Of a stretch of 64,000 bases of DNA, positions 1 to 57,445 are shown in pieces (the first letter of the stretch is position 1; each line of letters opens with the position of its first letter). The position numbers and the translations under genes are program-made. Source of the DNA: Phycisphaerae bacterium (GTDB lineage: Bacteria; Planctomycetota; Phycisphaerae; UBA1845); assembly GCA_963666835.2 (NCBI GenBank), contig CAXXGO010000003.1, positions 384,001 through 448,000 on the forward strand, in the 5' to 3' direction. Below the pieces are notes generated by a model. The model was not told the origin of the DNA and did no database searches. It worked only from the letters and a program-made list of their open reading frames with translations.

Positions 1-112
1 ATGTCCACACCCGGAAGTGACGGGGCTACGGCTCGCGGAATCTCGCGACCCCGGACGGCGTTCGTTCGGTCATGAACGGACGGGTCTAGTCAGCAACCTC
101 GGAGTCAAACGC

Positions 113-2882
113 ATGTTGAAGAACCTCACAATCGGCAAGAAGATCGGCCTCGGCTTCAGCGTAGTCATGCTTCTGCTGGCCTTGGTTGCGGTTCTTTCAT
201 ATACCGGGGTCGGCGGAATCGTGATGAATGCCGGAGAAGTCATCACTGGTAATAAGCTCGACGGCAACTTGGCCCAGAAAGAGGTGGACCACCTCAACTG
301 GGCCAACAACGTCATTGCTCTGTTGACCGACGAGAATGTCACCGAGCTGTCCGTTGAGACGGACGATCATCAGTGCGGCTTCGGCAAGTGGTTATACGGC
401 GAGGGCCGCAAGGAGGCCGAGAAACAGATTCCATCGATTGCCCCGATCCTCAAGGAGATCGAGGGATACCACGCACACTTGCACGAATCTGCGATTGAAA
501 TCGGGGACCACTTCAAACAGGCCGACGCGACGTTGCCCGGCATGCTGGCAGCCCGCGAGGCCGATCACCTCGCATGGGCCGCTGAGATCAACAGGCTGTT
601 TCTGGAGAATCTCCCCCAACTCGAGGTGACGACCGATCCGAACGAATGCGCCTTGGGCAAGTGGCTGGCGAGTTCAGAAGTAGAACGGCTCGCCGCTGCC
701 GACCCCGAGTTCGCCAGTCTGCTCGAAGCCTTGAAGAAACCGCACGCTCTGTTGCACCGCTCAGCCGCTGCAATCCAAGACACGTGGAAGCAACAACACA
801 AGGGTCTCATCCACACATTGCGGGAACGGCTGGACGATCACCGCAGGTGGGCGGCCGGCGTCGGCGAGGCGTTGCTGAGCCACAAGGAAATCGACGTCCA
901 AACCGATCCGACAAAATGCGCTTTCGGCGTTTGGCTCGCCGGCGAAGAGTGCCGCCAACTCTGCGTGAACTGGCCGGAATTCAACGAGATCATCAACAAA
1001 GTCAAGAGGCACCACGCGGACCTCCACGAGTCGGCCGTAGGTATCCGGGAGCACACTAAGTACGCAGAACTCGCCGCAGCCCAAGCAACCGAAAAGCAGA
1101 TTAGCGAAGAATGGAATCGGATCGGCCGGCGGGTTACCACGGCTCTGGAAGAAGGGATGGTCAGCGTTATCGACCCTGCCAAGGCGAGCGCTGAGCAGGC
1201 AAGAGACGTTGCCGCTATGGTCTCGTGGGGCGCCATCGACATGCACATGAACGAGGCGATCATCGCCCCGTTTCTGCAGGCCCGCTTGCTGGCGGCTACG
1301 GCCACCACGCCCGAGCAGTGGCGGGCCTATGACGAGCAGTTCCGACAGGTTAGCGACGGCCTCGCCGAGTGGGCGACGATGATAGACGGCAAGGATAGCG
1401 TAGCGTTACAGCGAACGGCCCAGGCGGTCAGGCAGGCACTCCAAACATGGCAGGAGGCTACTTCCTCGTATCGAAGAGCGCAGGAGGAAGAGCACCAGTA
1501 CGCCGCTGCCTGTGAGCGGGCTCGGGAAATCTACAGAACCCAAACCCTGCCGGCGCTCCACGACGTCGCCACCCCTGTTCGCAAGCGCCGTCGAGATGGA
1601 GAACGAAGTTGTGGCGCAAGGAGAACGCGCCAAGGACATCTTCCATAACCAGACCATGGTGGCCCTGAGCGATACCCGCGCGGCCATCCACAAATGCCAC
1701 GACCATGCTACGTATGCTCTCGAAGGCATGAGGCACGCTGACGAAATCTACGCGAAGAGCACCAAGCCTAATCTGGAGCAAATCCAGATGTTGCTCAACA
1801 AGGTGCGGGCCGAGGTGAGGGGCAACGTAATGACCGATGATGCCATGCTCGCCAGCGCCCAGAACACCAAGCGAAACGTCACGCTCGTAGGGGCGATTGC
1901 CATTGTCGTCGGGGCAGTCTTGGCGTTTATGATCTCCCGCGGGATAAGCACCTCCCTGAAAACCATCATCACGTCTCTGCGCGACGGAGCCGATCAGGTC
2001 AACGATGCCGCCGGCCAAGTATCGTCCGCCAGTCAGGAACTCGCCGGCGGGGCGAGCGAGCAAGCCTCGTCGTTGGAGGAAACCTCCAGTGCTCTCGAGG
2101 AGATGGCGGCCATGACCCGGACGAACGCCGAGAACTCCAGACAGGCCAACGAGTTGAGCAGTCAGGCGTGCGACGCCGCCCAAAACGGCGACCGCACCAT
2201 GCACAAGCTCAATGAGGCCATGATCGGGATCAACGAATCGTCCGACCAGATCAGCAAGATCATCAAAGTAATCGAGGAGATCGCCTTTCAGACTAACCTT
2301 CTGGCGCTGAACGCGGCCGTCGAAGCCGCCCGCGCGGGCGAGCACGGTAAAGGCTTCGCTGTCGTAGCCGACGAAGTTCGCAACCTGGCCCAACGCGCCG
2401 CCCAGGCAGCCCGAGAGACAACCGGACTGATCGAGGATTCGGTCAACAAGGCCAAAGAGGGCACAAACGTTGCCGATGACGTGGGCAAGGCCCTCGGCGG
2501 CATCGTGAATGACATCACAAAGGTCACCGAACTAATCAACGGTATCGCCACAGCCAGCGAAGAGCAGGCCCAGGGCGTCGATCAAGTCAACACGGCCGTG
2601 TCTCAGATGGACCAAGTGACCCAGCGGAATGCGGCAACCGCCGAAGAATCCGCTTCGGCGGCCGAAGAACTCAGCGCCCAGGCGGAATCAGTCAAGGGAA
2701 TTGTGCGGGAGTTGGCGGTCATGGTTGGCGAAGATAGTCACCAAAGCAGTGGCCGCTCGCCACGTCCCCGCCCGCATGCGTTCCCCCGCAGGTCCGGAGC
2801 CTCGCCCAACAGCCCGGTGATTCCTTTGGGAGAGGAACCGCAAGGCACCGAGGTGGAGGATTCGACATTTGCCGGTCTGTAA
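113..2882 (+). CDS. Methyl-accepting chemotaxis protein with three CZB-like domains, split by one frameshift near 1570-1590
   Basis: ATG at 113 after GGAG, followed by a TM segment ([22 protein letters not shown]). Three DH..W / CxFGxWL / HxxLH motifs. The second frame carries TM2 and the MCP hairpin [34 protein letters not shown]. Confidence 0.9.
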
Positions 2883-3046: not shown

Positions 3047-3176
3047 GACGTCACAGACGTCTGTGGCCGTATGGGTCCCTCACCTCCAAGGGTGTCCTTG
3101 CGGTGAGCGTGTATGACGCGATTTGAGCGACCCGGTATCGTCAGCCGTCGACCGATGGTGGTCTGGAGGACGGCTG

Positions 3177-3617
3177 ATGAGATCCAGAGGGACAGGCACG
3201 CTCCCGGCTCGCCTCGAGGCGGGTCGGCGGCGTTTTGAACGTTGGCGTCGGACCCGTGAAGGCCGCTCGCGCATTCCGGATCCGCTGTGGAACTCGGCGG
3301 TAAAGCTCTCCGCAACGTACGGGATTCACCGAACCGCCAAGACGCTGCGACTCAATCCCGACTCGCTCAAGAAGCGCGTGGCATCTGCAAACGGCGATGG
3401 CTCGCTTGGGCAGAGGAAACCCCGACAGAAGACCGCCGGGCAGGAGGCAGCCACGGCTTTCGTTGAGTTGGTGTCTACTGAAGGCACTTGCCCGCCCGAG
3501 TGCATCGTCGAACTGGAGCATCCTCGCGGGGCGAAGATGCGGATCCACGCCAAGGGCAACCAAATCCCGGACGTGGTGACGGCGGTGAGCCAGATCTTCT
3601 TCGGCGCCATGCCATGA
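3177..3617 (+). CDS. tnpA: IS66 accessory protein TnpA-like (HTH)
   Basis: RBS GGAGGA; FERWRR..RIPDPLWNSAV and AFVEL..IVELEHPRGAKMRI motifs; stop overlaps the tnpB start. Confidence 0.75.
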   Translation: MRSRGTGTLPARLEAGRRRFERWRRTREGRSRIPDPLWNSAVKLSATYGIHRTAKTLRLNPDSLKKRVASANGDGSLGQRKPRQKTAGQEAATAFVELVSTEGTCPPECIVELEHPRGAKMRIHAKGNQIPDVVTAVSQIFFGAMP

Positions 3618-3976
3618 TTCAGGTCACACCCCAGATGCGCATCCTGGTGGCCGTCGAGCCCGCCGATTTTCGAAAAGGCATAGATGGCCTGGCCCGGCTG
3701 TGCAAGGAGGAGTTGAAACGCGACCCGTTTTGCGGCTGGGTGTTCGTATTCCGCAATCGACGGGCCACGGCTGTGAAGGTTTTGGCTTATGATGGGCAAG
3801 GATTCTGGTTAAGCCATAAACGTTTGTCGAGCGGGCGGTTTCGCTGGTGGCCCGTCAGTAAGACAGGGGCGAGCAAGACGCTGGAGGCGCACCAGCTGCA
3901 CGTCCTCCTGTCGGCGGGCAATCCCGACGCGGCGCAGGCCCCGGCGGCATGGCGGCGAGTCAACGCAGCATCTTGA
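3614..3976 (+). CDS. tnpB: IS66 accessory protein TnpB
   Basis: MIQVTPQMRILVAVEPADFRKGIDGL...FVFRNRR..VKVLAYDGQGFWL.KRLSSGRF is the family signature. Confidence 0.92.
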   Translation: MIQVTPQMRILVAVEPADFRKGIDGLARLCKEELKRDPFCGWVFVFRNRRATAVKVLAYDGQGFWLSHKRLSSGRFRWWPVSKTGASKTLEAHQLHVLLSAGNPDAAQAPAAWRRVNAAS

Positions 3977-4005
3977 GAGCGAATGAAAAAACTCGGCCTT
4001 CGGGC

Positions 4006-4034
4006 TTGCGTTCTACTTTTGACCCTGCTACGCT
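4006..4034 (+). promoter_or_regulatory. Putative sigma70 promoter for a near-leaderless DUF4338-tnpC transcript
   Basis: TTGCGT-17 bp-TACGCT, with the ATG 6 nt downstream and no Shine-Dalgarno sequence. Confidence 0.45.
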
Positions 4035-4040
4035 GCGGTC

Positions 4041-4913
4041 ATGGACGTGCTGCGGTACCGAGGCCGGGTTGTCACCGACGCCGACGTCGCCTTCATTGGT
4101 GACCTCATCAGCGCGCATCCAACCGCCACGCGGCGGGCACTGTCCCTGAAGCTGTGCGAGGCCTGGAACTGGGTCCAGCCCAACGGCGTTCTGCGGGACA
4201 TGGTCTGTCGCGGATTGTTGCTGGCGTTGCATCGCGCGGGCCACATCGAGCTGCCGCCGGCGCGGAAGTCCAATCCTCTGGGGCCGCAGCGTCGGACACC
4301 TTCGCGCGCGACGCTCCGCTGTGATCCCATCGAGGGGCGACTGTCCGACATCCTTCCGCTTACCATCGCTCAGGTGCGACGCACCGGTGATGAATCGCTG
4401 TTCGACAGTCTGCTTCAGACCCACCACTATCTGGGCTACACCCAGCCGGTCGGCGAACATTTGAAGTATCTGATCTCGACAAATGGTGTTCCGGTGGCCT
4501 GCCTGGCGTGGTCCTCGGCGCCGCGGCACCTGGGTCCAAGAGACCGCTTCATCGGTTGGTCGGCCGACAGCCGGCGGAAGAACATCCGCTTCATCGCTTA
4601 CAACCTCCGCTTTCTGATCCTGCCGTGGGTCGAGGTCCCTCATCTGGCCTCGCACATTTTGGGTCGCATGGCCCGGGTGTTACCTCAGGACTGGGAGCGG
4701 ATCTACGGCCACCCCATCTACTTCCTGGAGACCTTCGTTGATCCCCAGAGATTCAAAGGCACCTGTTACCGCGCGGCCAACTGGTTGGTTCTGGGGCGCA
4801 CCACGGGCCGGGGCAAGGACGACCTGACCCACCGGCCTAACCGGTCCATCAAAGAGGTGCTGGGCTACCCACTCTCGAAGCATTTTCGAAAACGATTGTG
4901 CCACACCGCATGA
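4041..4913 (+). CDS. DUF4338 / Druantia DruA-like protein
   Basis: HHYLGY..VGEHLKY, RDRFIGW, N.RFLILPWV.VPHLASHIL and LETFVDP.RF.GTCYRAANW..LG.T.GRG motifs. Confidence 0.8.
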   Translation: MDVLRYRGRVVTDADVAFIGDLISAHPTATRRALSLKLCEAWNWVQPNGVLRDMVCRGLLLALHRAGHIELPPARKSNPLGPQRRTPSRATLRCDPIEGRLSDILPLTIAQVRRTGDESLFDSLLQTHHYLGYTQPVGEHLKYLISTNGVPVACLAWSSAPRHLGPRDRFIGWSADSRRKNIRFIAYNLRFLILPWVEVPHLASHILGRMARVLPQDWERIYGHPIYFLETFVDPQRFKGTCYRAANWLVLGRTTGRGKDDLTHRPNRSIKEVLGYPLSKHFRKRLCHTA

Positions 4914-6628
4914 AGAAGACCATACCCATTGAGAAGATCGCTATGAAAGAACTGGAATCCATTCTGCAACGCGCTGAGACGGCTCCGCTGGATGCAAAGG
5001 ACCGCGCGAAGCTCAAGGCGGTGTTCGAATCCTACCTTCACCTGACGGACCTAGTCGAGGACAAGCAGATGACAATCAAGCGTCTACGGCAGATGCTCTT
5101 CGGCGCCGGCACCGAGAAGACCCGCGATGTGATCAAGGAGGAGGAAGACGAACCCGAGTCGCCGCCGGCGACGGGCGGGGATTCGCGTGCCCCGCCGGAG
5201 AAGACGGGCGAAGAGGGCTCGGAACCGCAGCAGAAACGCAAAGGACATGGGCGCAACGGCGCCGACGCCTACACCGGCGCTGAGAAGATCAGGGTGCCTC
5301 ACGAATCCCTCCAGCCGGGGGATTCGTGCCCGGCGTGCAAGAAGGGCACAGTCTACCAGATGAAGAAACCCGGTGTGCTGATCCGGATTGTGGGTCAGGC
5401 TCCGGTGGCGGCCACGGTCTTCGAGCTTCAGAAGCTGCGCTGCCATCTGTGTGGCAAGGTATTCACGGCCGAGCCGCCCGAGGGAGCGGACGAGGAGAAG
5501 TACGACGCGACGGCAGCGAGTATGATCGCCCTGCTGAAGTACGGAAGTGGGTTACCCTTCAATCGATTGGAAGGCCTGCAGGGAAACCTGGGCATTCCTC
5601 TGCCGGCCTCGACCCAGTGGGACATCGTCCGCGACACCGCCGAGATCATCCAGCCGGCCTATGATGAGCTGATCCGGCAGGCTGCCCAGGGGGAGGTGCT
5701 GTACAATGACGATACCACGATGAAGATTCTGGAACTGATGGGGAAGCGGGCTACCGCCAGAGCCTGTGCCGAAGCTGAAGGCGAGGACGAGGGCGATGGC
5801 GCACCCGAACGTGCGAAGAACGTACCCAAGCGCTCGGGGGTGTTCACCTCGGGCATCGTGTCCACCCGCGAAGGGCGCACGATCGCGCTGTTCTTCACGG
5901 GGCGGCGGCACGCTGGGGAAAACTTGGACGAGGTCCTGGCCCACAGAGCCTCGGAGCTGGGTGTGCCGATCCAAATGTGCGACGCCCTGTCGCGTAATGC
6001 GCCCAAGGAATTCGAGACCATCCTGAGCAACTGCCTGTCCCACGGCCGGCGCCAGTTCGTCGATGTGGTGGAGAACTTCCCGGACGAGTGTCGCCACGTG
6101 CTTTTGACCCTGAGGGACGTCTACAAGCATGATGCCATCGCGCAGAAGCAGGACCTGACGTCCGAAGAGCGCCTCCGCTTCCACCAAGCTGAGAGTGGCC
6201 CGCTGATGGACGACCTCAAGGAATGGCTAACCAGGCAACTCAAGGACCACCTGGTGGAGCCGAACTCCGGTCTCGGCGAGGCTATTACCTATATGCTCAA
6301 GCACTGGGACAAGCTGACGCTCTTCTTGCGTAAGGCTGGGGCTCCGCTGGACAATAATGTTTGCGAACGAATTCTGAAGCGGGCGATTCTTCACCGTAAG
6401 AATGCGATGTTCTTCATGAGCGAAAACGGTGCCCGCGTGGGCGATCTATTCATGAGTCTGATCCACTCCTGCCAGCTTTGCGGCGCCAATCCCTTCGATT
6501 ACTTGACCGAGCTACAGAAGCACGCGGCGGAACTCACCTCCGATCCCGCGACGTGGATGCCCTGGAATTACCGGGACGAATGGAAGAGGCGAAACGTGGA
6601 CACGGAAACGGCAGTGGGATATGTCTAA
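4910..6628 (+). CDS. tnpC: IS66 DDE transposase TnpC
   Basis: N-terminal coiled coil ending LFGAGTEK, zinc finger CPAC..CHLC, and DDT, MCDALSRN, CLSHGRRQF, DNNVCERILK and NPFDYL motifs. Confidence 0.93.
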   Translation: MKKTIPIEKIAMKELESILQRAETAPLDAKDRAKLKAVFESYLHLTDLVEDKQMTIKRLRQMLFGAGTEKTRDVIKEEEDEPESPPATGGDSRAPPEKTGEEGSEPQQKRKGHGRNGADAYTGAEKIRVPHESLQPGDSCPACKKGTVYQMKKPGVLIRIVGQAPVAATVFELQKLRCHLCGKVFTAEPPEGADEEKYDATAASMIALLKYGSGLPFNRLEGLQGNLGIPLPASTQWDIVRDTAEIIQPAYDELIRQAAQGEVLYNDDTTMKILELMGKRATARACAEAEGEDEGDGAPERAKNVPKRSGVFTSGIVSTREGRTIALFFTGRRHAGENLDEVLAHRASELGVPIQMCDALSRNAPKEFETILSNCLSHGRRQFVDVVENFPDECRHVLLTLRDVYKHDAIAQKQDLTSEERLRFHQAESGPLMDDLKEWLTRQLKDHLVEPNSGLGEAITYMLKHWDKLTLFLRKAGAPLDNNVCERILKRAILHRKNAMFFMSENGARVGDLFMSLIHSCQLCGANPFDYLTELQKHAAELTSDPATWMPWNYRDEWKRRNVDTETAVGYV

Positions 6629-7211
6629 ACGCAGCTCGAAGAAAGCGGTCAAACCTCCCAAGATAGCGGACCCCGGGCAACGGCTGCGCAAGGCGCTGGC
6701 CAGGCGCACGAAAGGTGAGCTGATTGATGTTCTCGTGGAATTGGCCAGTGATGATCGCGCAGTTCTCCGGCGGTTTGCGGCACGCTTCGAACTACAGGCT
6801 CCGCCCAAAGAACTCTTGGTGATGACCCGTCAAGCGATTGCCGACGCTACCGCCTTCGACGAGCGGGACGCCAATTACAACTTCAGCTACGACGACGAAG
6901 CATACCGTGAAGTGCAACAGAATCTGAACCGCTTGATCGAGCTGGGGCATCTACGGCCGGCCATGGAGTTGTCGCTGGAGCTGATGGATCAGGGAAGCTA
7001 CCAGGTCGAATCGAGCGATGAGGGATTGATGACCGAGGACATCGAGGCGTGTTTCGGTACGGTCCTGAAAGCCCTCCGAAAGTGCGACCTGCCGGCAGCC
7101 GAGGTGATCGCGTGGTGCGCGAAGATGCTCAAGACTGACCGCGTGGGCTTCATCTGCGATCAGGAGCTTCACACGCTGCGACGGCGATTCGAGGGCACGC
7201 CGTCGCCATGA
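6621..7211 (+). CDS. Hypothetical alpha-helical passenger protein inside the IS
   Basis: 196-aa ORF that overlaps the tnpC stop and lies inside the right inverted repeat. Confidence 0.65.
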   Translation: MSKRSSKKAVKPPKIADPGQRLRKALARRTKGELIDVLVELASDDRAVLRRFAARFELQAPPKELLVMTRQAIADATAFDERDANYNFSYDDEAYREVQQNLNRLIELGHLRPAMELSLELMDQGSYQVESSDEGLMTEDIEACFGTVLKALRKCDLPAAEVIAWCAKMLKTDRVGFICDQELHTLRRRFEGTPSP

Positions 7212-7368
7212 CCCGCCGCCAATTCCCCAGGTGGATGTCGAGTCCTGAAAGCCGACCGGACCTCACATCGTGATGCCCGCCAAGCAACGGCCCGCGTCTT
7301 CCCCCCACCACGAACCGCGCGCCACAAAACCGGATCATACACGCTCACCGGAAAGACACCTCCAAGGA

Positions 7369-8043
7369 GATGGGCCACCCGCTCAGTACCGCGACCGTTA
7401 GGGAGCCGGCCCGACGCTACGATCGCATCGGGCGGGTCGCTTACGCTCGCCGTACTGAGTGCGCAGGCTTCCTCGCAGGGCAGCATCGGCGGATGTAGGG
7501 CATGGTCGAGGTACGAGACCTGCCGTCGGTCTTCGCGCGATGGCGGTGACGCTCCGCCGGCCCATCCGGACGGGAATACGCGGGGCCAAACCGCCCCCAC
7601 GGGTTCCGCTTCGCTCCACCCGTGGCTACTTGCCTAGGTCCCTTCGGGACGAACTATCGCACGACCGCGCCAGCGTCCTTCGCGTAGCGCTGGCATCCTG
7701 CCGGCAGCATGCCGGACAACGTACGAACTCACACAATTCCGCCACCGCCAACGCGATGGGCCACCCGCTCAGTACCGCGACCGTCAGGGAGCCGGCCCTA
7801 TACACCACTCGCCAAGGGCGGGTCGCTCACGCTCACCGTACTGATTGCGCAGACCTCCTCGCAGGGCAGCATCAGCGGGTGTAGGGCATGGTCGAGGTAC
7901 GAGACCTGCCGTTGGTCTTCGCGCGATTCCGGCAACTTTCCGCCGGCCCTTCGGGACGGGCGTACGTGAGGGGGATTCGCCCCCACGGGTTCCGCTCCGC
8001 TCCACCCGTGGCTACTTGCCTGCGCCCCCTTCGGGGCGAACTA
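7369..8043. repeat. Two ~288-bp imperfect tandem copies (7369-7656, 7755-8043) of a composite palindromic REP-like unit
   Basis: Both start gatgggccacccgctcagtaccgcgaccgt and end gaacta. They contain the palindromes tcagtac..gtactga and ccacggg..cccgtgg. Confidence 0.88.
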
Positions 8044-8084
8044 CCGCACACCCGCCTGACACGGTGAGTGCCATTGCGCATATG

Positions 8085-8648
8085 CTACTGCTCGGTAGTT
8101 AAAGCCCGCTTGGGATCGATAGCCACGCCGCACTCCGAGCAGACGCCCGTAACGTTGCCGGTCAGGTCGTAACCGCAGGCAATACACAAACCACGTTTGC
8201 GCCGACGGCGACGGCGAAGTGGGCCGCGGATGAACGTGACGGCCGGGTAGGCCGCCAGAAGACATGCGACGCCCCACGGGAACCTGGCGGACATGTAGAT
8301 GGACAGGTGCCATCCACACGCCCGACTCGGATAGACCTGCACGTTTAGCCCAACAAGTCGTTCGAGGCGTGAGGCCAGCCTGAAACCTTTTGCAGAATCC
8401 ACGATACCGTGAGAGCAACATTGACAACCGGAATACAAACAGTCCTCATTAGCCTCCAAGGCTGCCACCCCGCCGCGCAACACATCAATGGAGCAATACC
8501 AGGGCGAAGGCTGCAAACCACTGTAATACGGCCCCAACCACGGCGATGCACAAACCAGAAACGCGCCGAGGCACGCCATCGACACCGCCCCCAGCGTCAA
8601 CCCGACGATAACGGCCACGCGGAACATCCTGAGGATCTTGCGAATCAC
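8085..8648 (-). CDS. Membrane protein with C-terminal zinc ribbon (array 1, gene 5)
   Basis: VIRKILRMFRVAVIVGLTLGA head and RRRRRRKRGLCIACGYDLTGNVTGVCSECG tail; the GTG start overlaps the upstream TGA. Confidence 0.8.
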   Translation of the reverse strand: MIRKILRMFRVAVIVGLTLGAVSMACLGAFLVCASPWLGPYYSGLQPSPWYCSIDVLRGGVAALEANEDCLYSGCQCCSHGIVDSAKGFRLASRLERLVGLNVQVYPSRACGWHLSIYMSARFPWGVACLLAAYPAVTFIRGPLRRRRRRKRGLCIACGYDLTGNVTGVCSECGVAIDPKRALTTEQ

Positions 8649-9295
8649 GAGGAAACCGCCCTTCCACACTCCGAGCAAACACCCGTGACGTTGCCGGTCA
8701 GGTCGTAACCACAGCCAGTGCATCTTCCGTTGCGCACGCGCCAGTAACGATGGGCTGGTCCGCGAAGGAACACAGTGACCGGATAGAGCGAGAAGACCGT
8801 AAACGCCATCCATATAGGCATCTTCACCGACCATACGGACGTCTGCTTGTTTGCCGCGAAATCCCTGTCTTCTTTGGTGAGCCCGAATCGCCAGCCGGCT
8901 GCGGGAGGCTTCTGGGCATAACACAGAAACTGAAAACCAAGGCCCTCAAGGTCGTGCGGACGGAATGTGGACTCGCGATCAACCTCTACGAACAACCCGA
9001 GGGCAGCATTACCATTGTAGGATTGAAGACACATTCGCCTGCCTGGACCGAGGTCCATGCAACGTCGGTAGCCCGGTGAAACATGACCCGCCAGAGCGTT
9101 CCGCCATCCGGTGGTCAGCCCAACGCGTTGGTGCCACCGAAAAAGCACAAGGAGCTCCCTTCGCATTGAATACGTGGTTCCCCAGCGCTGCGAGTCGTAG
9201 TTGATCGACGTGGCCGTGCTCGAACCCAGACGCCACAGCCAAAGGCACCCCACAGCCCCGAGCACACACCCGAACAGGATGGTCTTGCGGATCAC
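8645..9295 (-). CDS. Membrane protein with C-terminal zinc ribbon (array 1, gene 4)
   Basis: IRKTILFGCVLGAV head and CTGCGYDLTGNVTGVCSECG tail; GTGA overlaps at both ends. Confidence 0.8.
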   Translation of the reverse strand: MIRKTILFGCVLGAVGCLWLWRLGSSTATSINYDSQRWGTTYSMRRELLVLFRWHQRVGLTTGWRNALAGHVSPGYRRCMDLGPGRRMCLQSYNGNAALGLFVEVDRESTFRPHDLEGLGFQFLCYAQKPPAAGWRFGLTKEDRDFAANKQTSVWSVKMPIWMAFTVFSLYPVTVFLRGPAHRYWRVRNGRCTGCGYDLTGNVTGVCSECGRAVSS

Positions 9296-9933
9296 GAGTC
9301 AATCGCCCTCCCGCATTCGGAGCAGACGCCGGATTCGTTGCCGGTGAGGTTGTAGCCGCAGTTGTGGCAGTACGGACACGAGCGATCCGAACACTTCCCG
9401 AGCTTGCCGTAGACTGTGCGGGCCACAACGAATGATGCCGCCAGCGGAAGTACCAGCAATCCAGCAAGCGCGACGTCTTCTGACCCTAAGGATCGACCGA
9501 GCGCCTTGATCCCGTCGCCCCCCTCCAATAATCCGTACTCAACCATGTTGAGAACGTAATTGGCCACGACCATGGACAGCAGGAACGATGCCCCAGCAAT
9601 GACGAGTCTATGACGGCGATATCGCCGAACAGTCCCTCTAATCGCTACGATGGCCGGGTATATGCTCAGGAGAAGAAACGCCGCCCAGAACGGAATGACA
9701 AAATTGCCCCAGAAACTGACACCGCCATACCGCCCAAGATCGACGGCAAACCCACGGTACCCACAGTAACCAAGCACGCACGGAACAGGGGTTGACGCCC
9801 GATCCAGCAGCCCGAAGCCGCACCAATGCGGCAACGTACCCCCGGACACCGTTAGGTTGGCCGGTCTGACCCATAGGGCAGCCGTCCCGATCGCCGCCAA
9901 TGTCAGCACCACAATGATCGCCTTGCGAATCAC
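9292..9933 (-). CDS. Multi-pass membrane protein with C-terminal zinc ribbon (array 1, gene 3)
   Basis: VIRKAIIVVLTLAA head, two extra TM segments, CHNCGYNLTGNESGVCSECG tail. Confidence 0.8.
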   Translation of the reverse strand: MIRKAIIVVLTLAAIGTAALWVRPANLTVSGGTLPHWCGFGLLDRASTPVPCVLGYCGYRGFAVDLGRYGGVSFWGNFVIPFWAAFLLLSIYPAIVAIRGTVRRYRRHRLVIAGASFLLSMVVANYVLNMVEYGLLEGGDGIKALGRSLGSEDVALAGLLVLPLAASFVVARTVYGKLGKCSDRSCPYCHNCGYNLTGNESGVCSECGRAIDS

Positions 9934-10503
9934 GGCGTGATCTCCGTACCACACTCCGGGCAGACGCCTGATACGTTCCCTTGTAGGTTGTACCCGCACG
10001 TCAGGCACAGGCCTCGCTCTTTCCGGCGCCAGCGTCGCCACCTACGCATGGGGCCGCGAATGAAGGTGAGCGTCGGGTATGCCACCAAGACGGCCAATGG
10101 AAACCAGTTTGCCACGCGGGCCCTCCAGACCGCATGTTGTCCCGGGGCGGCAGTCGAATAGAACCTCGCCTGGTCCCACTTGAAAACTCCGAGGTCAATC
10201 ACACCGATCGTCACACCGTCCGGATCCTCCGCCCAGTCGTCGCAAAGCACCGAGGTCCAGGCCGAGCTGATCTCAATGCGCAGCATGCGGTCCCACGCAC
10301 CGATCGGTTCGTTCCCGTTGCTGACCCGCCCCTCAGTAGCGACATATACCGCAATCGAGGTGCCGGTCCCGTCTCGACGGACACCCACGCTTCGTCCCTG
10401 AGACAACCAGCCGTATTCCGTTGCCGGAAACGCCAGAACCACCCAGGCGACGGCGTAGACAATCGCCCCGAACGCGCGCGTACAGGATAGTCTTGCGGAT
10501 CAC
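9930..10503 (-). CDS. Membrane protein with C-terminal zinc ribbon (array 1, gene 2), frameshift near 10470-10480
   Basis: VIRKTIL, then in another frame GAIVYAVAWVVLAFP, matching the paralog at 52807-53376; CLTCGYNLQGNVSGVCPECG tail. Confidence 0.75.
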
Positions 10504-11087
10504 GAAGAAACCGCCCTCCCGCATTCGGAGCAAGTGCCGGATTCGTTCCCGGTGAGGTCGTAGCCGCAGGCAACGCATAGGCCGCGCTTCAACCGTCGTC
10601 GTTGTCGGCGTTGACGCATAGACCCGCGGACAACCAGGAGCAGCGGTGCCGCGGAAATGATGAATGGTGCCCACAGCGGGATGTCCAGTTGCCGGTGCCG
10701 CATGATCACATGGTACATTGTGTGGTCGGACAAGTCAGCTTCAACCGTATACAGAGGGATGTCATGCCGATAGAAGCCCAGACATCCGGAGTTGCCCGGT
10801 GACCCGATGGGCATCTCCCAGCCGCGCCGCCTCTTGTCGATCTCCGAGTCGTAGCTCTCTTGATCGTTGTCCCGGACGGTCTCACAGAAGCGCAATACGC
10901 CTCGCAAGCAGTATACCGCCCTCCACGTTCCGCGATCACTGGATACTCCGTATCTCGGGAACGTCGTATAGCTAAGGACCGCCGCAACGACCACGAGAAC
11001 CAGGCTGACTGAGGCGCAGACGACGAGCAGGCGAAGCACCCTCGGCACCCACCTGACTCTTGCGTCGACCACACCCCTCTCGTGCAT
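10500..11087 (-). CDS. Membrane protein with C-terminal zinc ribbon (array 1, gene 1)
   Basis: ATG after GGGAG; TM1, variable loop, IPLWAPF TM2, then RRLKRGLCVACGYDLTGNESGTCSECG. Confidence 0.78.
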   Translation of the reverse strand: MHERGVVDARVRWVPRVLRLLVVCASVSLVLVVVAAVLSYTTFPRYGVSSDRGTWRAVYCLRGVLRFCETVRDNDQESYDSEIDKRRRGWEMPIGSPGNSGCLGFYRHDIPLYTVEADLSDHTMYHVIMRHRQLDIPLWAPFIISAAPLLLVVRGSMRQRRQRRRLKRGLCVACGYDLTGNESGTCSECGRAVSS

Positions 11088-11555
11088 TCGTCTCTCCCGA
11101 CCATCGCGTCGGATGGGCACATCTCTCCACTTCGTCCCCCAGACTACCAAGACCCCATGATACCGAACCCTCCACCTGCTCGCCAGGAGGATCCATGGCC
11201 ATCCCCCGGAGGACTGCTCACGCGCCGGAAGAGGGCCAAGCCTAAAGGACACGGCCAGCCCGCATCACTCGCGACGTTCGCATGAGTCTGTGTAACGTAC
11301 GTTAGCGTCACCACTTGTCGATAGCGTTATTGTAACAGAGCGTGCTTCCACGCCAGGGACAAGCCCTGGCCCTACACTGGTTTGCGGCGTATACTTCGTT
11401 TGGATGAGTGATTCGGGCTGGGATTAACACGGGGGCGGGGAATCTCTCGCCGTCGACAGGCGTTCCAGGTTCTTGTCCTCCCTATCCGGAACTCAGCTAG
11501 AACACTCGTTACTCTCTGATTCCGTCGCCCGCGTTCACGATATGCTGTATACGTG

Positions 11556-12377
11556 TCACTTCAGATCGAACAGGCTGTTGTCGTCGGTTTGCCCGAACCA
11601 GCCGATGTTGAGGCGGTCGGGGTCGGCCATGTAGATGCCGCTGGAGAAGGTGAGGGTGCGGCGCTGGGCGTCGACGTGGCCGTCGCACCAGCCGACGCCG
11701 GCCAGGCCGTTGTGGCGGAAGTGAATGGACGGGTCGGCCCGGTAGTCGGGGTAGCTGGGGTGGTATCGCGGCTCGACGAAGCTGTATTCAATCAGTTGCG
11801 TGCCCGCGAAAGCGGTTTCGGCGAACATAATGGTCTCGGCGGGCCGCACGACCCATCCAACCAGGGCGCCGGCCCGATCGTTAATCACCTCATACTCGCC
11901 CGAGGGGTACTCCTTCAACTGCACGCCGATGAAGGCGTTGTTGTAGCCGTAACCGCCGTTACCGCGTTCGAAACCGCCGCTTTCGGCGGCGATCTCCTCG
12001 GCGGGGAATGTCGGGCACTGCCGGATCCGCCCTTCCGCCCCGAGGTACGGAACAAGCGGGCCGCGGGTCGAGTCGAAAGCCTCCGCCGGATTGTCGCGTT
12101 GCCCGTGCCAGCGATGCAGATTCTTGTGCATACTCTCGGCGCCGGGGCAATAGACGCCGTCGTTATCCTCGGCGTAGTAGCCGTTGGCGACGATAAGCTG
12201 GTTCAGATTGGAGCGGCAGACGACGCTCTTGGCCTGCTCCCGGGCGGCGGACAAACTCGGCAGGAGCATTGAGGCCAGCAGTACGATCATGCCCATCACG
12301 ACGAGCATCTCCAGCAGGGTCAACGCGCTGCGCCGGCATGTCGGGGGATGTGGCGGCGAGGTTGAGGTGATCGTCAC
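11556..12377 (-). CDS. Prepilin-type N-terminal methylation / DUF1559-like (H-X9-DG) protein
   Basis: ALTLLEMLVVMGMIVLLASMLLPSLSAAREQAKSVVCRSNLNQ and C-terminal HFRHNGLAGVGWCDGH. The exact start is uncertain. Confidence 0.88.
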   Translation of the reverse strand: MTITSTSPPHPPTCRRSALTLLEMLVVMGMIVLLASMLLPSLSAAREQAKSVVCRSNLNQLIVANGYYAEDNDGVYCPGAESMHKNLHRWHGQRDNPAEAFDSTRGPLVPYLGAEGRIRQCPTFPAEEIAAESGGFERGNGGYGYNNAFIGVQLKEYPSGEYEVINDRAGALVGWVVRPAETIMFAETAFAGTQLIEYSFVEPRYHPSYPDYRADPSIHFRHNGLAGVGWCDGHVDAQRRTLTFSSGIYMADPDRLNIGWFGQTDDNSLFDLK

Positions 12378-12559
12378 GGGCAAGCGGACCGCTGGGCTTG
12401 CCGAGTGAACGATCTTGAGCTGTGGTAGGTCATCCGGTACCGCACGTTCTGCTCGATGCTTGCCCATGCCACCCCGGTGATTGCCAATCCGGGGCCTGCC
12501 GGGGCTGATCGTCAATGCCGGATAGCCGCGGATGCCGTGCATGGCGAGAGTATCCTACA

Positions 12560-13700
12560 TTACTGCGGTCCGAGTAGCCGCGCGGAGAATGCCGAGAAAT
12601 CAGAAAGATCCACCAGGGCCGGGGGCGCCCAGGTTCATCCGATCGCAAGGCTCACCGACATTCGTAGTCCGGCCTAGGCACCTTTGCATACCGACCATGT
12701 CTGCCAGATCGATGTCACCATCTTCGTCCCAGTCTCCGAAGGGATCCGGGGCAACGTCGGCCACAGCGTCTATTTCCGGAGATTTCTCGCCGAATCTGCC
12801 CAGCAACACATTTGTTGGGTTCGTCAGGCGGATCAGATTGAAACCCGGCAGATCCGCCGGGAGCATCGTCTCCGGATCAACCGCCCAGGCAATGTCGAAC
12901 GCGTCCCCCCCACCGGAGCCCGGAGTGATTCCGACAACAAGTGGATCATCCGGCACAGTGTAGAACTCCTCCGGCGTTATCTGCGGGTCGTCAACTATGT
13001 TGTCTGCATCGAGATCACCCAGAAACAAGGTAGGCGCGTAGTCGGCATACCCGTAGATACCCTCCACTTCGGGGTCTTCCGCCGGGTTCTCCATTATCAG
13101 ATCCTCGAACGGACTCGCCGGCAGCATCGTGGCACCGGTGTACCAGACTCCGGTCATACCCGGCGGGACCCACGATAGCAGAGTCGGCGGAGTATCCGTA
13201 TCGGGATCGTCGTCCCATTCCTGGGTGGCCCACTGCCCTACCGGATCCACAACGTGAGAGCCCGGGATCAAATACCAACCCTCGTCCGGGTCTACGTCTC
13301 CGTCACCGTTAGCGTCGAGGGCGATCTCAATCGTGCCGCATTCCGCCCAGTGCCGGTGAGCCTGCGAGTCGACCCAGAACGCGTTTCCATAGACGATCGC
13401 ATCCACCCCGAACGCGTTGCGGGGATCATCTTGCACAACGTGGTCGAACCCCAATGTAATACTGCCCCCGAACCCGCCGAGTGAGACTACCGACGCGTTG
13501 CTCGGGTCGAAAGTGCCTGCTCCGATCGGCGGACCAAGTGCCCGCGCCGGATCGTCGTAGTCCGCCTTAGTAACGAACTTCCCTGGCGCCGGCGAGAAAT
13601 CAATCACCGATACGGCAAACGGGCTGTCGCCTCTTGCCGGCACGGCCCCAAGCACCAGCGCAACCGCGACAGCTCGAACCGCAGGTAGAACGTCCTTCAC
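12560..13700 (-). CDS. Secreted cell-surface protein with C-terminal dockerin-like motif, frameshift near 12625
   Basis: GTG after GGAGG and a signal peptide. VIDFSPAPGKF..VVSLGGFGGSITLGFDH..GNAF and GGGDAFDIAWAVD motifs. Tail DWDEDGDIDLAD...VDLSDFSAFSARLLGPQ (stop at 12560). Confidence 0.75.
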
Positions 13701-48432: not shown

Positions 48433-48705
48433 GCGGGATTGTGGCCTGGGGTCATCGACCCGGAAGGCCCCCTACGGACCGGTCGGCCCATGATGGACTC
48501 CGCCCGGCCGGCGTGCGGTAATCTCAATAACCGTGCCGATCGCTCTGGTCCCACCCCGAATAACGAGGTGGATATCTCCCGACCTCAGCTCAGTACCAAG
48601 AGAACACCCCCAGAACTCGGGACTGAGCCCGGAGGGCGCACACTATTCCGAGGCGCGCCCCGAAACCAGTCGACTTCGGTGACCCCTGCCCCTAGGATGC
48701 TCCCC

Positions 48706-49549
48706 ATGACGGCAGTGTCCAACGATACCGCGACCCAGGAACCCCGCTGCCCGAATTGCGGCTACTCCCTGGTCGGGTTGCCGGAGTTTCGTTGCCCCGA
48801 GTGCGGCGCGCCTTTCGACGCGGAGTATCTTCAGGACGCCGCCCCACCTGCTCCCCTGGGAGCGGCCCGAGGTCGGCGGAAGACTCAGACGGATGACTCG
48901 GACAGTAATCAACGCATCACTCCACCCTGGCCGGTTCTTCACGGCCGTCAGCCAACGCAAGGATCGCCGGATATCCGGCGCGGGTTCGTTCGTCGTTGCG
49001 TGCTTCCTCGCAGCCGTGTGCCTTCATGTCGCGGCGTTCGTTTTGAGGTATTTCGTCATCTTCCTCGAATCGGCATTCAGATTCGGCGATCCGCTGAGGG
49101 CCTTGGACTTGGTTGCAGCAACGATCGGGACAGTCGCCCCAACGGCGTGGTTCATGCCGTCTCTTCTGACCCTGCCGCTGCTCCTGTCCGTCTTCCCCAT
49201 CGCGTTTCTCCTCACGCGCCTGTTTCGGAGTCATTCCGGCGCACTTCGGACCACGGACTTCGCCGCGCTTCTGAGCCCGGCCATCACGCTTGGGGCGTTC
49301 ATCGCCGCCGTCACCGACGTCCTCCAGACGCCTCTCCAACATGCCTCCACGGTCCTCTCCACGCTGAAGGCCTACGGCGGGGACGCGGCCCTGCTCTTGC
49401 TTGTCTGGCATCTGTGCCGGAAGCTGCTGGCCCTGAGTCGCGTGCGGACCGGGGCGATGGTCGTGGTGTGCTGGGTCCTACTACATGGCGTCTACGTTGC
49501 CGTTGACTCGGTCCTCACGTCGCTGTTGTGGTCGATGATCTTCCCGTGA
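48706..49549 (+). CDS. Membrane protein with N-terminal zinc ribbon, frameshift near 48840
   Basis: CPNCGYSLVGLPEFRCPECG, then in the other frame LPWE..HPGRFF and several TM helices. Confidence 0.7.
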
Positions 49550-49601: not shown

Positions 49602-50096
49602 TCACCCGCCCTCATCCTCCGGAGGCTGGGGTATCGCGCTGCTGGCGGCCGTTTGCCGGGGCACGGGCGTCCCACACTCCGAACATCGGCCCGAGACGTT
49701 CCCCGTCAAGTCATACCCGCACTTCGCACAATAGCCCGGCGGAATCCGGCGGTCGCGACGCCAGGCCAGGAATGTCGGGACTCCGATCACGACCAGGGGG
49801 ATCCAGAGAGGGACCTCAAAAATCAACCATACAGGATAACCGCCCTGGCTCTCGGGCAATAAGAAAACCGTCGGCCTATCTCTCCTGCGGCACTCCCAGC
49901 CTCGCGGGACCGAAGGGTGGAATCCACCTGAGTCGTATTCGAAGCCGGCAACCCCCGCGCCAAGGCCGCCCCCGCAATTCTGACCGGTGTAGCGACAGTA
50001 CCACCATGGGGTTATGACCATGGCCAGAAACAGGACCACGCACGCCACCAGCCCCGCCCACTTCAGGAACCGCCGTTTCCGAGAGATGGTCCGCAT
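49602..50096 (-). CDS. Membrane protein with C-terminal zinc ribbon (array 2, last gene)
   Basis: RRFLKWAGL TM; VPLWIPL; RRIPPGYCAKCGYDLTGNVSGRCSECG. Confidence 0.8.
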   Translation of the reverse strand: MRTISRKRRFLKWAGLVACVVLFLAMVITPWWYCRYTGQNCGGGLGAGVAGFEYDSGGFHPSVPRGWECRRRDRPTVFLLPESQGGYPVWLIFEVPLWIPLVVIGVPTFLAWRRDRRIPPGYCAKCGYDLTGNVSGRCSECGTPVPRQTAASSAIPQPPEDEGG

Positions 50097-50101
50097 GGTG
50101 G

Positions 50102-50587
50102 TTATCCGGGAGCCTCATCCTGCTTGGGATCGATCGGGACGCCGCACTCGGGACAGACGCCCGTGATGTTGCCGGTTAAGTCGTAACCGCAGCCGACGCA
50201 GAGGCCACGTTTCAGTCGGTAGCGCCTGATGGTACGAGGTAGTAACGGATAGGCGACAACCGGAAGCAAGACAAGAAGAGATAGATGGAGCGGCACTCTG
50301 ACCCGCCACTGGCTCGGCACTGAAAAGTCGATACTAGGCAGCATTTGCCAGGGCACATATGCCGGGGGGTGGTATGCGTGAAATGCACCGTACCAGGGCA
50401 GAGTGTCCAAAGGCGTTCCTGAAGGAGCCCAGTATGGGTTGCAGCCCAGCATACCATGCTGGAAGTAGACGTAGACGCGGTAACCGGGATCCCACCAGCC
50501 AACGATCCAACGGAAACTCAGCGCTATGGCCACGAGCACAAGGGCCGTCCCGGCGAGCGCCACCCACCATCGCCTGCGAAAGGTCAC
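50102..50587 (-). CDS. Membrane protein with C-terminal zinc ribbon (array 2)
   Basis: GTG overlaps the upstream TGA; KRGLCVGCGYDLTGNITGVCPECGVPIDPK tail. Confidence 0.8.
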   Translation of the reverse strand: MTFRRRWWVALAGTALVLVAIALSFRWIVGWWDPGYRVYVYFQHGMLGCNPYWAPSGTPLDTLPWYGAFHAYHPPAYVPWQMLPSIDFSVPSQWRVRVPLHLSLLVLLPVVAYPLLPRTIRRYRLKRGLCVGCGYDLTGNITGVCPECGVPIDPKQDEAPG

Positions 50588-51135
50588 CGCACATCCTCCC
50601 CGCATTCTGAGCAGACGCCGGACTCGTTGCCGGTCAGGTTGTAGCCGCAGCTGATGCACAGACCTCGCTTCCGGCGACGGCGGCGGCGAAGGGGACCGCG
50701 GATGAAGGCGACGGCGGGGAAGATGGAGAACATGACAGCCACGAGCCATGTAGGTAGTGCCAGCGCGCGAATGTGCATGCGCGGTTCCATTGGCATGGGG
50801 ATACTCATACAGCAGAAATCAAGGATACAAGCCCCAAACGGTCCGCCTGGGTCCAGTATCTCATGAAGGGCATCTACATGGGGCCAGTGCTTGTTATACC
50901 AAAACTCGTCTCGGACATGGACAAACATCTCCGTGGCAGCCCGCAAATCGTTCCCCTCGGCTGTCCAACTATACAAGTAAACGACGCCGACCCCATCTCG
51001 TATGTCGAACATCGCCTGCGCGCGACTCATCGGACGACTCATCCAGAACACGCGATCGGTGTAGCTCCAGAGAGAGATGACGATGAACAAGCCCGTGAAC
51101 ATCAGCGATAGACCCAATAGGGCTTTGCGAAGCAC
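50584..51135 (-). CDS. Membrane protein with C-terminal zinc ribbon (array 2)
   Basis: VLRKALLGL head; FIRGPLRRRRRRKRGLCISCGYNLTGNESGVCSECG tail. Confidence 0.78.
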   Translation of the reverse strand: MLRKALLGLSLMFTGLFIVISLWSYTDRVFWMSRPMSRAQAMFDIRDGVGVVYLYSWTAEGNDLRAATEMFVHVRDEFWYNKHWPHVDALHEILDPGGPFGACILDFCCMSIPMPMEPRMHIRALALPTWLVAVMFSIFPAVAFIRGPLRRRRRRKRGLCISCGYNLTGNESGVCSECGEDVR

Positions 51136-51502: not shown

Positions 51503-52594
51503 CTATGGTCGATCATCGGGGCCCTCTGAATGCCCTATATCGCGAACAACGCGGAAACCGACGATCTGTCGGAAGCCCACCTCTTCCCCCGAGAAGGGAA
51601 CACGGTCAAGGAGAGGCAGCGGGAAGCGAGCGGTGGATGTGCATGCCAGCGGGTTATCTGCCAGCCACGCACCGCTTCGAAGAACGTGAGTCCACCCAGC
51701 TGGCGGCCCCACCGGATCAACCATGAGGCCCTTCGCCTCGCATTCCAAGTAATAGGAATTGGAGAACCAGTCATGTACCCACTCAGCAACGTTGCCATGC
51801 ATGTCGTAGATTCCCCACGCGTTTGGTTTTAGTCCTGCCACGCGGGAGGCGCGTCCAATGTCCCTCTTGCACCACCCGTAGTCGGCAAGTCCGAAGCGGA
51901 AACGTCCAAACGACCACTGGGTATCGGTGCCTGCCCGACAAGCGTATTCCCATTCAGCTTCGGTTGGCAGCCGGTAGACCGCGTCTTCCTTCTGAGAGAG
52001 AGTATCGCAGAAGCGGCGCGCTTGTTCCCACGTTACCCCCACCGCCGGAGAGTCAGGATCCGGCGAATACGCGCTTGCTTTGAACGACGGGGACAGCTGC
52101 TGCATCTCCTCGTTGGTTACCTCGGTAACCGCGATGAAGAACGAACGGGAGATTCTGACGGGATGGGCAACATCTTCTTCATATATCCTGTGTTTGTCCG
52201 GCCCCATTGTGAACTCACCGGGGGCAATCTGAACAAACCTCATCCCCAGCGTGTTTACACGGGCGGCCACCCAGACCTGACCGCGGTTCACAGGATCTCT
52301 CTCGGCGATTCGCCCCAGGGCCTGTGTGGCCGGATACCAATCCGCACGCTTGCTCTGTTTCGTCAGGCTAACCAACTGAGCGAATTCGCTTGGGCTCTGC
52401 TCGCTGTGCCCCTCATCCGGCTGGGCGTGGGCCACACTCGACGCGGTCGAGACGATGGCAAGCGCCATCAACAACTGCGTGATCGCGATGCCAGAAGCAG
52501 CCTTACCTATCGCGTCTCTTCGGCCGATCGAGAACCGAGCAACCTCACGATCAGACTCTGGTGAAGTCGGGCACTGGCCCTGCTTGCCTATCAT
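51503..52594 (-). CDS. FGE-sulfatase (SUMF1)-family protein
   Basis: NTLGMRFVQIAPGEFTMG, TEVT, YRLPTEAEWEYACRAG, PNAWGIYDMHGNVAEW and GFRVV motifs. Confidence 0.88.
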   Translation of the reverse strand: MIGKQGQCPTSPESDREVARFSIGRRDAIGKAASGIAITQLLMALAIVSTASSVAHAQPDEGHSEQSPSEFAQLVSLTKQSKRADWYPATQALGRIAERDPVNRGQVWVAARVNTLGMRFVQIAPGEFTMGPDKHRIYEEDVAHPVRISRSFFIAVTEVTNEEMQQLSPSFKASAYSPDPDSPAVGVTWEQARRFCDTLSQKEDAVYRLPTEAEWEYACRAGTDTQWSFGRFRFGLADYGWCKRDIGRASRVAGLKPNAWGIYDMHGNVAEWVHDWFSNSYYLECEAKGLMVDPVGPPAGWTHVLRSGAWLADNPLACTSTARFPLPLLDRVPFSGEEVGFRQIVGFRVVRDIGHSEGPDDRP

Positions 52595-52720
52595 CTTGTC
52601 GCCTCCACTTTCAGTCACGCCACAACAGACCAGATGATCTACCGCGTCGCGGGCTCCTCTTCCATCTCGCTCGCTGGTCGCCCCCGCGCATTGGGGCGCC
52701 GGCCAGATGCCCGAACGACT

Positions 52721-52810
52721 TCATCCCATCCAATTATCCACCGTTAGCACTCCAAGCGTCAACCCGACGATGACGGCCACGCGCAGCACCCTGAGGATCT
52801 TACGAATCAC
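52721..52810 (-). pseudogene. Truncated 5' head of a zinc-ribbon array gene
   Basis: VIRKILRVLRVAVIVGLTLG, then a stop after 29 codons; near-identical to the head at 8648. Confidence 0.75.
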
Positions 52811-53376
52811 TGCGGAATCTCCGAACCGCACTCAGGGCAGACTCCCGAGGCGTTCCCCTCTAGGCTGTACCCACACGTCAGGCACAAGCCTCGCTTTCTT
52901 CGACGCCACCTGCGAACCGGGCCACGCACTAAGACAAGCCCCGGATACGCTGCCAGGACGACGAACGGGAACCAGCTTGGCATCTCAATCGCCCGGGTCA
53001 CTTCTGACGGACCGGGACCCGCGATAGATTTCTCCACCGCCCATGCAAGGCTCCCGAGGCCAATCCGCCTGACCGTCACGCCTCTCGGATCCTCCGCTCG
53101 GTTTATGAGTACCACGCTGACTCGGTCTGGCCTGACCCCAACCAGCAGGACGCGATTAAACGAGACCGCCCCTCCACGTTCGCGCCCGTTCAACCTCTCA
53201 GTGCCGAAGCTCAGCGAGAACACACTTATGGAGTGGCGCGGCAGCCGAAAGACATGCATTCTCTGATCTTCGGACATCCAGCCAAAGTTGGCTCCCGGGA
53301 ACGCCAGGACCACCCACGCGACGGCGTAGACAACCGCCCCCAGCACGCACCCGAATAGGATCGTCTTGCGGATCAT
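52807..53376 (-). CDS. Membrane protein with C-terminal zinc ribbon (array 2)
   Basis: MIRKTILFGCVLGAVVYAVAWVVLAFP head; RKRGLCLTCGYSLEGNASGVCPECG tail; ATGA overlap. Confidence 0.8.
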   Translation of the reverse strand: MIRKTILFGCVLGAVVYAVAWVVLAFPGANFGWMSEDQRMHVFRLPRHSISVFSLSFGTERLNGRERGGAVSFNRVLLVGVRPDRVSVVLINRAEDPRGVTVRRIGLGSLAWAVEKSIAGPGPSEVTRAIEMPSWFPFVVLAAYPGLVLVRGPVRRWRRRKRGLCLTCGYSLEGNASGVCPECGSEIPQ

Positions 53377-55045: not shown

Positions 55046-55074
55046 TTGCATTCCCCTAATTCGTGGGGTATGTT
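55046..55074 (+). promoter_or_regulatory. Sigma70-like promoter of the ArdC operon
   Basis: TTGCAT-17 bp-TATGTT in an AT-rich patch, followed by a hairpin ggtcccg..gatg/catc.cgggacc at about 55095-55123. Confidence 0.55.
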
Positions 55075-57425: not shown

Positions 57426-57445
57426 GCGCGGGGAAGGAATAGAAT

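Follow-up and report, generated by a model that had tools for sequence, protein, structure and literature searches.

A lineage-expanded array of overlapping membrane zinc-ribbon genes in a Phycisphaerae bacterium, possibly diversified by ordinary recombination in the conserved gene ends

In the lpl clusters of Staphylococcus aureus, homologous recombination occurs in a conserved block and the inherited unit spans two genes; the part of that study used here reports no exchange between loci or species (PMC2568036). Small cytoplasmic Cys4 ribbons are carried by the inner-membrane proteins ZitP of Caulobacter and GltJ of Myxococcus, where, in the sections drawn on here, they bind proteins (PopZ for ZitP; its own linker and MglB for GltJ) (PMC11135422). 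Here we describe a tandem array of five genes for small membrane proteins, each gene ending in a zinc-ribbon sequence, in a stretch of 64,000 nucleotides (nt) from a Phycisphaerae bacterium (GenBank assembly GCA_963666835.2, contig CAXXGO010000003.1, positions 384,001-448,000; called the window below). Our reading, to which we give a probability of about 55%, is that these small two-pass inner-membrane proteins come from a lineage-expanded tandem array, whose units have diversified through ordinary homology-directed recombination in the conserved coding ends.

The five genes lie head to tail on the minus strand, and all four junctions of this first window array are GTGA stop/start overlaps of 4 nt. 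Gene 1 (11087-10500; 195 aa, start codon inferred) encodes a basic head without IRK, a first transmembrane helix (TM1), a unique middle, a second helix (TM2), an Arg run and a Cys4 zinc ribbon. The heads of genes 2-5 carry IRK. Gene 2 (10503-9930; 574 nt) is frameshifted and its middle belongs to a family termed Ma. Gene 3 (9933-9292; 213 aa) starts with the family consensus head IRKAIIVVLTL and has a short middle, the ribbon and four hydrophobic helices, the additional pair sitting between the Arg run and the ribbon. The longest middle (~135 aa) is that of gene 4 (9295-8645; 216 aa), modelled as TM-beta-TM-ribbon; gene 5 (8648-8085; 187 aa) has a Cys-rich middle of the Mb family and an IDPK-type tail. 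All five genes end in the ribbon CxxCGY(D/N)LxGNxxGxCxECG, and the ribbon DNA (60 nt) shows pairwise identities of 65-85%. None of the ten pairs of middles aligned better than shuffled sequences (163-454 of 500 shuffles scored equally high). The original prediction, made from the sequence alone, had described the head-to-tail array with its four GTGA overlaps, IRK in four of the five heads and the shared ribbon, all of which we confirmed. Its statement that the five genes follow one plan applies to the ribbon but not to the frameshifted gene 2 or to gene 3 with its four helices.

The genome (handle G000; 83 loose and 49 strict ribbon motifs) contains six arrays of the ribbon subtype found here, termed GN, with 27 intact ribbons (C1:261k, C1:1,149k, C1:1,360k, C5:38k and two arrays in the window). 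GN-type copies are also scattered outside arrays, for example E_1 at C6:567k. Comparison of the middles of 27 units placed that of gene 2 with six others in the Ma family (seven members in five arrays) and that of gene 5 with two paralogs (C5:38.1k and C6:567.4k) in Mb. A third family, Mc, was found behind MRTISRK heads, and middles outside these three families are single-copy within the genome. The earlier claim that the middles are unrelated stands inside the array, but two of the five (genes 2 and 5) align as diverged paralogs of middles in other arrays, an outcome that the original prediction had named as refuting it and that is reached here in part; the other three do not. Unit C_2 joins an IRKxLR head to a Ma middle, which otherwise occurs under IRKTIL heads. 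At the protein level only, P0073 of another assembly differs from P0072 (gene C_2) by ∼10 residues, mostly in the middle and none in the head.

Descent patterns in the aligned units show that shuffling has occurred among arrays. Ahead of the ribbon, unit D_1 (C5:38.6k) agrees with E_1 at 25-28 of 30 nt per block; the agreement then drops to 22, 21, 14 and below. Compared with gene 5 of the second window array (50102-50587, minus strand), the upstream part of D_1 is unrelated (8-18 of 30 nt before the ribbon), and the following blocks match at 29, 29, 30, 28 and 26 of 30 nt; the two share ribbon, tail and next head and are crossover partners. Gene 1 of the second array (53900-54427, minus strand; four TM helices and a ribbon) shares 92.6% identity with a pseudogene at C1:1,359k for 757 nt, as far as the YNLTGN codons; beyond them the tail and the next head differ. 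At the CPECG codons, E_1 changes over to a locus whose ribbon is of a different subtype (95.6% over 457 nt). The three crossovers break in different parts of the 60-bp ribbon, one at its start, one in the middle and one at the end, and one fusion used just ∼14 nt of homology.

Tail class was found to track the head of the next gene (V 0.81, p 0.00015; 18 of 28 units having both) and not the unit's own head (p 0.37) or middle (p 0.76). An IDP tail is followed by an MRTI head in 5/5 cases, and these tails stand behind five different middles. Among 26 units, similarity of the middles did not correlate with that of flanking segments (Mantel r -0.12 to 0.05). At the protein level, middles are common to other organisms under different heads: that of second-array gene 2 (53373-53903, minus strand) is 77% identical to database protein P0157, and 48% identity was found for a gene of genome G015. 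The metagenome matches did not include the P0157 locus. Junctions were more alike within than between genomes (head 0.65 vs. 0.55; 0 of 2,000 permutations) in a subset of loci chosen for having arrays. The proposal that swapping uses the conserved ends as blocks of homology is borne out by the three mapped crossovers and the tail-to-next-head linkage.

The 4-nt overlaps weld TM2, Arg run, ribbon, stop/start, head and TM1 into one conserved block between middles. Because this block is continuous, general recombination could swap whole middles and change unit number with frames intact. Crossovers at several points in the block, within and between arrays, have recombined heads, middles and tails, and the travelling unit spans two genes. 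Recombination probably relies on general host machinery, with exchange between species. The genes of an array would be co-translated through the overlaps, with products that would differ in the domain exposed to the periplasm and present one common ribbon on the cytoplasmic side. Arrays also gain and lose units, giving rise to fusions, truncated heads and pseudogenes; signs of turnover are in-frame fusions in array A, truncated heads that end arrays, an inserted gene with an FGE-sulfatase domain and pseudogenes. Since in-frame fusions of 2-4 units exist among family proteins, the units act as modules.

The lpl/csa1 loci resemble this arrangement in having tandem envelope-protein paralogs with a conserved coding block and breakpoints at varying points, as far as the parts of the two reports used here describe them (PMC2568036; "gene accordions", PMC7360770). 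The lpl block is central, with intergenic DNA, whereas here it straddles a 4-nt overlap and whole middles are swapped. Crossovers here join distant arrays and middles are common to different organisms; none between lpl loci is described in the portion of the study cited (PMC2568036). The proteins here are two-pass proteins with a zinc ribbon and have no sequence relation to Lpl or Csa, for which no Pfam or NCBIfam match was found. The protein family carries no name in the libraries and papers searched, but its diversification logic is already known and the precedent limits the surprise. What the layout adds is that translational coupling alone can make the ends of neighbouring genes one recombination block, by which whole extracytoplasmic domains are swapped without a dedicated enzyme.

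In the intact genes of the window, TM1 comes after two to five Lys/Arg residues and TM2 is followed by an Arg run. This pattern probably puts the two ends in the cytoplasm and the middle in the periplasm; the positive-inside rule and structure models together suggest a beta-rich periplasmic domain. The four Cys of the ribbon are invariant, and models and charge pattern place this Cys4 ribbon on a predicted inner-membrane protein. The models of genes 4 and 5 had a mean predicted local distance difference test score (pLDDT) of 68; TM1, TM2 and ribbon reached 75-93, and the middle formed beta strands. The gene 4 model, the only one searched by fold, gave no Foldseek match at E<=0.001 (best Z 3.5, on helices), and a sequence search with its middle returned only gene 4 itself. 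In a sequence search of the PDB, the matches (C2H2 fingers and a DUF1610 ribbon) went no further than the CPECG level; predicting a homodimer of gene 5 (score 0.02) gave no answer.

Over 104 single-unit proteins picked from 214 fetched, median identity was 48% in the head, 16% in the middle and 66% in the tail, the end identities being inflated by profile selection. The middles of the family show a recurring pattern of strand-Gly-strand, GF and strand-PxW, and with a profile of 97 foreign middles, 11 of the 24 middles tested from this genome scored higher than 95% of shuffles. A single loose beta scaffold is likely, though not established for all middles. The ratio of nonsynonymous to synonymous substitution (dN/dS; rough values, near saturation) in ten pairs was 0-0.25 for the ribbon, 0.14-0.42 for TM2 plus Arg run (one pair 0.93), 0.15-1.03 for heads and 0.37-1.27 for middles. 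The middles evolve fast; adaptation is not proven.

The same ribbon ends a prepilin peptidase and occurs on Yip1-like and MauE/DoxX membrane proteins, which argues that it is a portable cytoplasmic module. As in ZitP and GltJ, a small cytoplasmic Cys4 ribbon sits on an inner-membrane protein, here by prediction. The ribbons of those two proteins, as described in the part of the source used here, are N-terminal with longer spacing (C5, C8, C28 and C31 in GltJ; PMC11135422), whereas the present one is C-terminal, 20 residues long and found on dozens of shuffled paralogs. Generic C4 ribbons (DZR PF12773, DUF7129 PF23455 and the LapB rubredoxin PF18073) have CxxC...CxxC knuckles and gave weak matches below threshold; the GY(D/N)LxGN spacer is specific to the array family, and no single unit passes a curated cut-off.

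Matches to the family were found in 27 of 30 relatives drawn from the same family and order, with 0 to 80 per genome. In a sample of the phylum, with at most 24 candidates scored per genome, 4/7 genomes of the same class and 0/143 others had matches. Named matches come nearly all from Phycisphaerae or Planctomycetota metagenome-assembled genomes, with one contig labelled Opitutaceae, and matches in the Atlas are Planctomycetota clusters without names. We located 134 C-terminal ribbons in 78 loci (counted as loci, not as independent genomes): 84 stand in runs of at least two, 89 have an NTGA overlap at their end and 34 lead into an IRK-type head. This exceeds chance: of the 2,762 long open reading frames (ORFs) of this genome, taken as background, 818 have such an overlap and ten lead into such a head. 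A 45-sequence profile matched 81,338 clusters (50% identity) at E<=0.001, the weakest of which may include generic ribbons, and 29,505 at E<=1e-10. The family is probably among the larger unnamed membrane families and would be a marker of Phycisphaerae biology. In agreement with the statement that no functional description is known, no Pfam, NCBIfam or PADLOC family exceeded its cut-off for single units, the family has no solved structure, and a literature search, which left supplementary tables and subscription journals outside, found no paper on the family. A phage origin was rejected, as only one locus lies in a viral collection and a PHROG match was obtained for 1/45 members.

The original prediction had presented the array as a candidate undescribed diversification system. 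If this meant a dedicated cassette system, the junction would be the recombination site of a specific enzyme that adds, removes and reorders units. The ribbon-to-IRK junction does recur in 18 other genomes, arrays often end in a truncated head, the fusion noted above used little homology, and the ribbon Asn codon is AAC in 28/28 units here. However, 28 ribbons were identical at codon positions 1, 2 and 3 at 0.80, 0.87 and 0.48; third positions vary almost freely, so the junction is conserved as protein and not as a DNA site. The junction DNA conservation seen earlier is real and is explained in this way. The same codon was used at invariant ribbon residues slightly more often (0.52) than genome usage would give (0.43). 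Folding of 28 junctions gave none with z below -2 (mean z +0.5 and +0.6 on the two strands) and no hairpin. An attC-like or other DNA site was rejected by these codon-position and folding tests. A DNA constraint on the Asn codon was likewise ruled out, since 126 ribbons elsewhere have 103 AAC and 23 AAT.

Searches for machinery point the same way. The best integron integrase match (TIGR02249) in the genome, which is 92% complete, reached 89 bits against a cut-off of 265, and with no attC hairpin at 28 junctions the array is not an integron, as had been stated. Among 138 scanned of 143 neighbouring ORFs at 36 loci there is one tyrosine recombinase, ∼1 kb from array A, and it scores 329 as XerD and 127 as IntI. 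No conserved partner gene was found among these 138. Of 14 reverse transcriptase matches in the genome none is at the six arrays, and no near-identical second copy of any first-array middle, as expected of the template repeat of a diversity-generating retroelement (DGR), was found. In one pair (D_1/E_1) 24 of 66 substitutions involve A and C/T transitions are commonest, with no adenine bias. As to shufflon features, all units are on one strand and only two chance-like inverted pairs were seen. Integrons, shufflons and DGRs share with the arrays a repertoire of same-strand variable units, but no integrase, attC hairpin, inverted sites, template repeat or adenine bias was found here. With the breakpoints in three different places, the junction no DNA site and a precedent in the lpl clusters, at least as the cited part of that study describes them (PMC2568036), we consider dedicated machinery highly improbable. 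Two of 13 near-identical reverse transcriptases (C6:1,065,894 and C6:2,624,913) adjoin clusters of other ribbon subtypes, and a fourteenth lies in a 958-aa frame at C6:1,809k.

What the array proteins do can be judged less firmly. The original idea of a bank of membrane proteins, outwardly variable but alike in their cytoplasmic ribbon, is supported, while the role as sensors, receptors or immunity proteins stays a suggestion. By analogy with ZitP and GltJ, the middle may bind an outside ligand while the constant ribbon contacts a common partner in the cytoplasm, or other ribbons, at about even odds in our estimate. Biological conflict with incoming toxins, phage entry proteins or non-kin cells would be the most likely driver, although we put it at less than even odds. 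Broader still, and somewhat unlikely, is a class-wide receptor repertoire, in which recombination in the ribbon/head coding block would move periplasmic recognition domains, numbering in the tens of thousands and built on one loose beta scaffold, from array to array and from species to species, every one linked through the same ribbon to a single Phycisphaerae-specific cytoplasmic hub; if true, it would amount to antibody-like innate recognition or kin discrimination without a dedicated recombinase. If the middles are binding domains, they would form a natural library on a small scaffold and offer a route to phage, toxin and neighbour recognition in these uncultured bacteria.

Several observations weigh against the view developed here. 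The modelled middles are of low confidence (pLDDT mostly <60), and the common beta framework was detected in one of the five middles of the first window array (gene 4). The dN/dS reaches 1 in just two of ten middle pairs, which relaxed constraint also fits. The tail and head classes were drawn post hoc, from units that are not independent of one another. At 36 loci, no gene for a ligand, partner, toxin or defence function turns up repeatedly beside the arrays, and the PADLOC anti-phage models match 0/45 members. Of the strain and read comparison proposed earlier, crossovers between arrays were found, but low-depth contigs (runs X1 and X2) show no convincing rearrangement at the locus itself; no strain pair was compared, and the 30 relatives drawn include no genome of the same genus.

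A rival reading is that the genes are paralogs from plain birth and death, coding for a membrane adaptor with a structural or housekeeping role, such as exchangeable subunits of mixed membrane complexes, whose middles drift under weak constraint and recombine as a by-product of tandem homology. Middle dN/dS is below 1 in 8/10 pairs, the middles form ordinary families with several pseudogenes and fusions, the genome is repeat-rich and generally rearranging, and the array neighbours are random. Such drift does not readily account for tens of thousands of distinct 50% clusters, for middles so much less alike than heads and tails (even if selection of the proteins inflates the ends), for middles common to organisms under different heads, or for copy numbers of 0 to 80 matches in relatives, and we regard it as unlikely. 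Quite unlikely, in our judgement, is a homogeneous polyimmunity-like bank, in which each middle neutralises a competitor's periplasm- or membrane-acting toxin and the ribbon passes on no signal, serving just as a tag for folding, stability or turnover. The polyimmunity loci of Zhang et al. (2012), in the part of that work used here, are likewise tandem distant paralogs in one operon with variable content and multi-domain fusions, sometimes with XerC/D beside them, as with the XerD-like gene near array A (PMC3482391), and the high turnover of the arrays would fit. Against this, the arrays have no Imm family match and no recognised toxin among the 138 neighbours (unannotated ones could hide toxins), immunity needs no invariant cytoplasmic ribbon, and six loci are present in this genome; in the portion of the survey cited, extended loci are confined to proteobacteria, bacteroidetes, firmicutes and actinobacteria, and a genome usually has one (PMC3482391).

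The second array of the window, also on the minus strand, continues from the two genes given above with gene 3 (52807-53376), a Ma-family paralog of first-array gene 2. A gene with an FGE-sulfatase domain (51503-52618, minus strand) is inserted behind a truncated IRK head and splits the array; gene 4 (50584-51135), a ribbon-array unit, gene 5 and gene 6 (49602-50096; MRTISRK head, Mc family) follow. Genes with FGE-sulfatase domains were seen in or beside three arrays (this one, L003 and L066), and the domain is fused behind a ribbon unit in database proteins P0216 and P0217. The FGE-sulfatase fold is a variable binding fold in DGR targets. An ORF on the plus strand (48439-49506) with an N-terminal-type ribbon (CPNCGYSLVG...CPECG) converges on the array, and its 3' part resembles a frameshifted gene. 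Upstream, a 3.5-kb segment with an ArdC-like anti-restriction gene (54664-58129) is 91% identical to DNA upstream of array D (C5). The upstream region is thus composite, and two other arrays share it. A promoter-like (T/C)TGGCG-18 nt-TATC(A/G)T, sigma-70-like by eye, precedes three arrays (∼54640-54680, C1:1,359.3k and C5:37.26k).

In the first array, the IRK frame of gene 2 ends after 56 codons (stop at 10335-10333); the codons for its middle, TM2 and ribbon are in another frame. Compared with its paralogs, gene 2 lacks 2 nt at a GCGCGCG run (10473-10479, minus strand). A short-read contig of run X2, which comes from the same sample as run X1, covers 9242-10916 with zero differences to the assembly, so the frameshift is not an assembly slip; a contig of run X1 has one extra letter, which cannot account for two missing nt. 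The CG run might be prone to slippage, and the frameshift may lower translation of genes 3-5. Translation from an in-frame GTG at 10442 could yield a product without most of TM1. Two gene-skipping joints in the contigs (8649-9310 and 10038-10424) have sides of 51 nt and were not counted, being best read as paralogs of other arrays or organisms.

Directly downstream of the first array, in its flank and outside the genes, lie two 286-nt copies of a hairpin repeat (7357-8028; 85% alike), which belongs to a genome-wide family with ∼740 short-word matches. An IS66-type element follows (3088-7359; a copy at C6:1,922.5k is 99.6% identical over 4,274 nt), with a DruA-like ORF (4041-4913), a transposase (4898-6628) and an ORF without assignment (6621-7211). 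Upstream of gene 1, a second dispersed repeat (11255-11420; ∼30-40 copies) forms a long hairpin with no Rfam match; no Rfam match was obtained at 6500-12600 and no promoter in a sigma-70 scan of 7100-11600. Farther upstream, a prepilin-type N-methylation gene (11556-12542) is single-copy in 57 of 80 family genomes, and a ribbon gene was found beside its orthologue (within 6 kb) in 0/18 other genomes. Elsewhere in the genome, array A is flanked by direct repeats of 593 nt (94.8%) and E_1 by direct repeats of 443-454 nt (97%); such repeats could move or delete whole arrays. At the start of the window (17-2882), overlapping ORFs carry CZB and MCP-signal domains in different frames and are possibly one frameshifted chemoreceptor gene.

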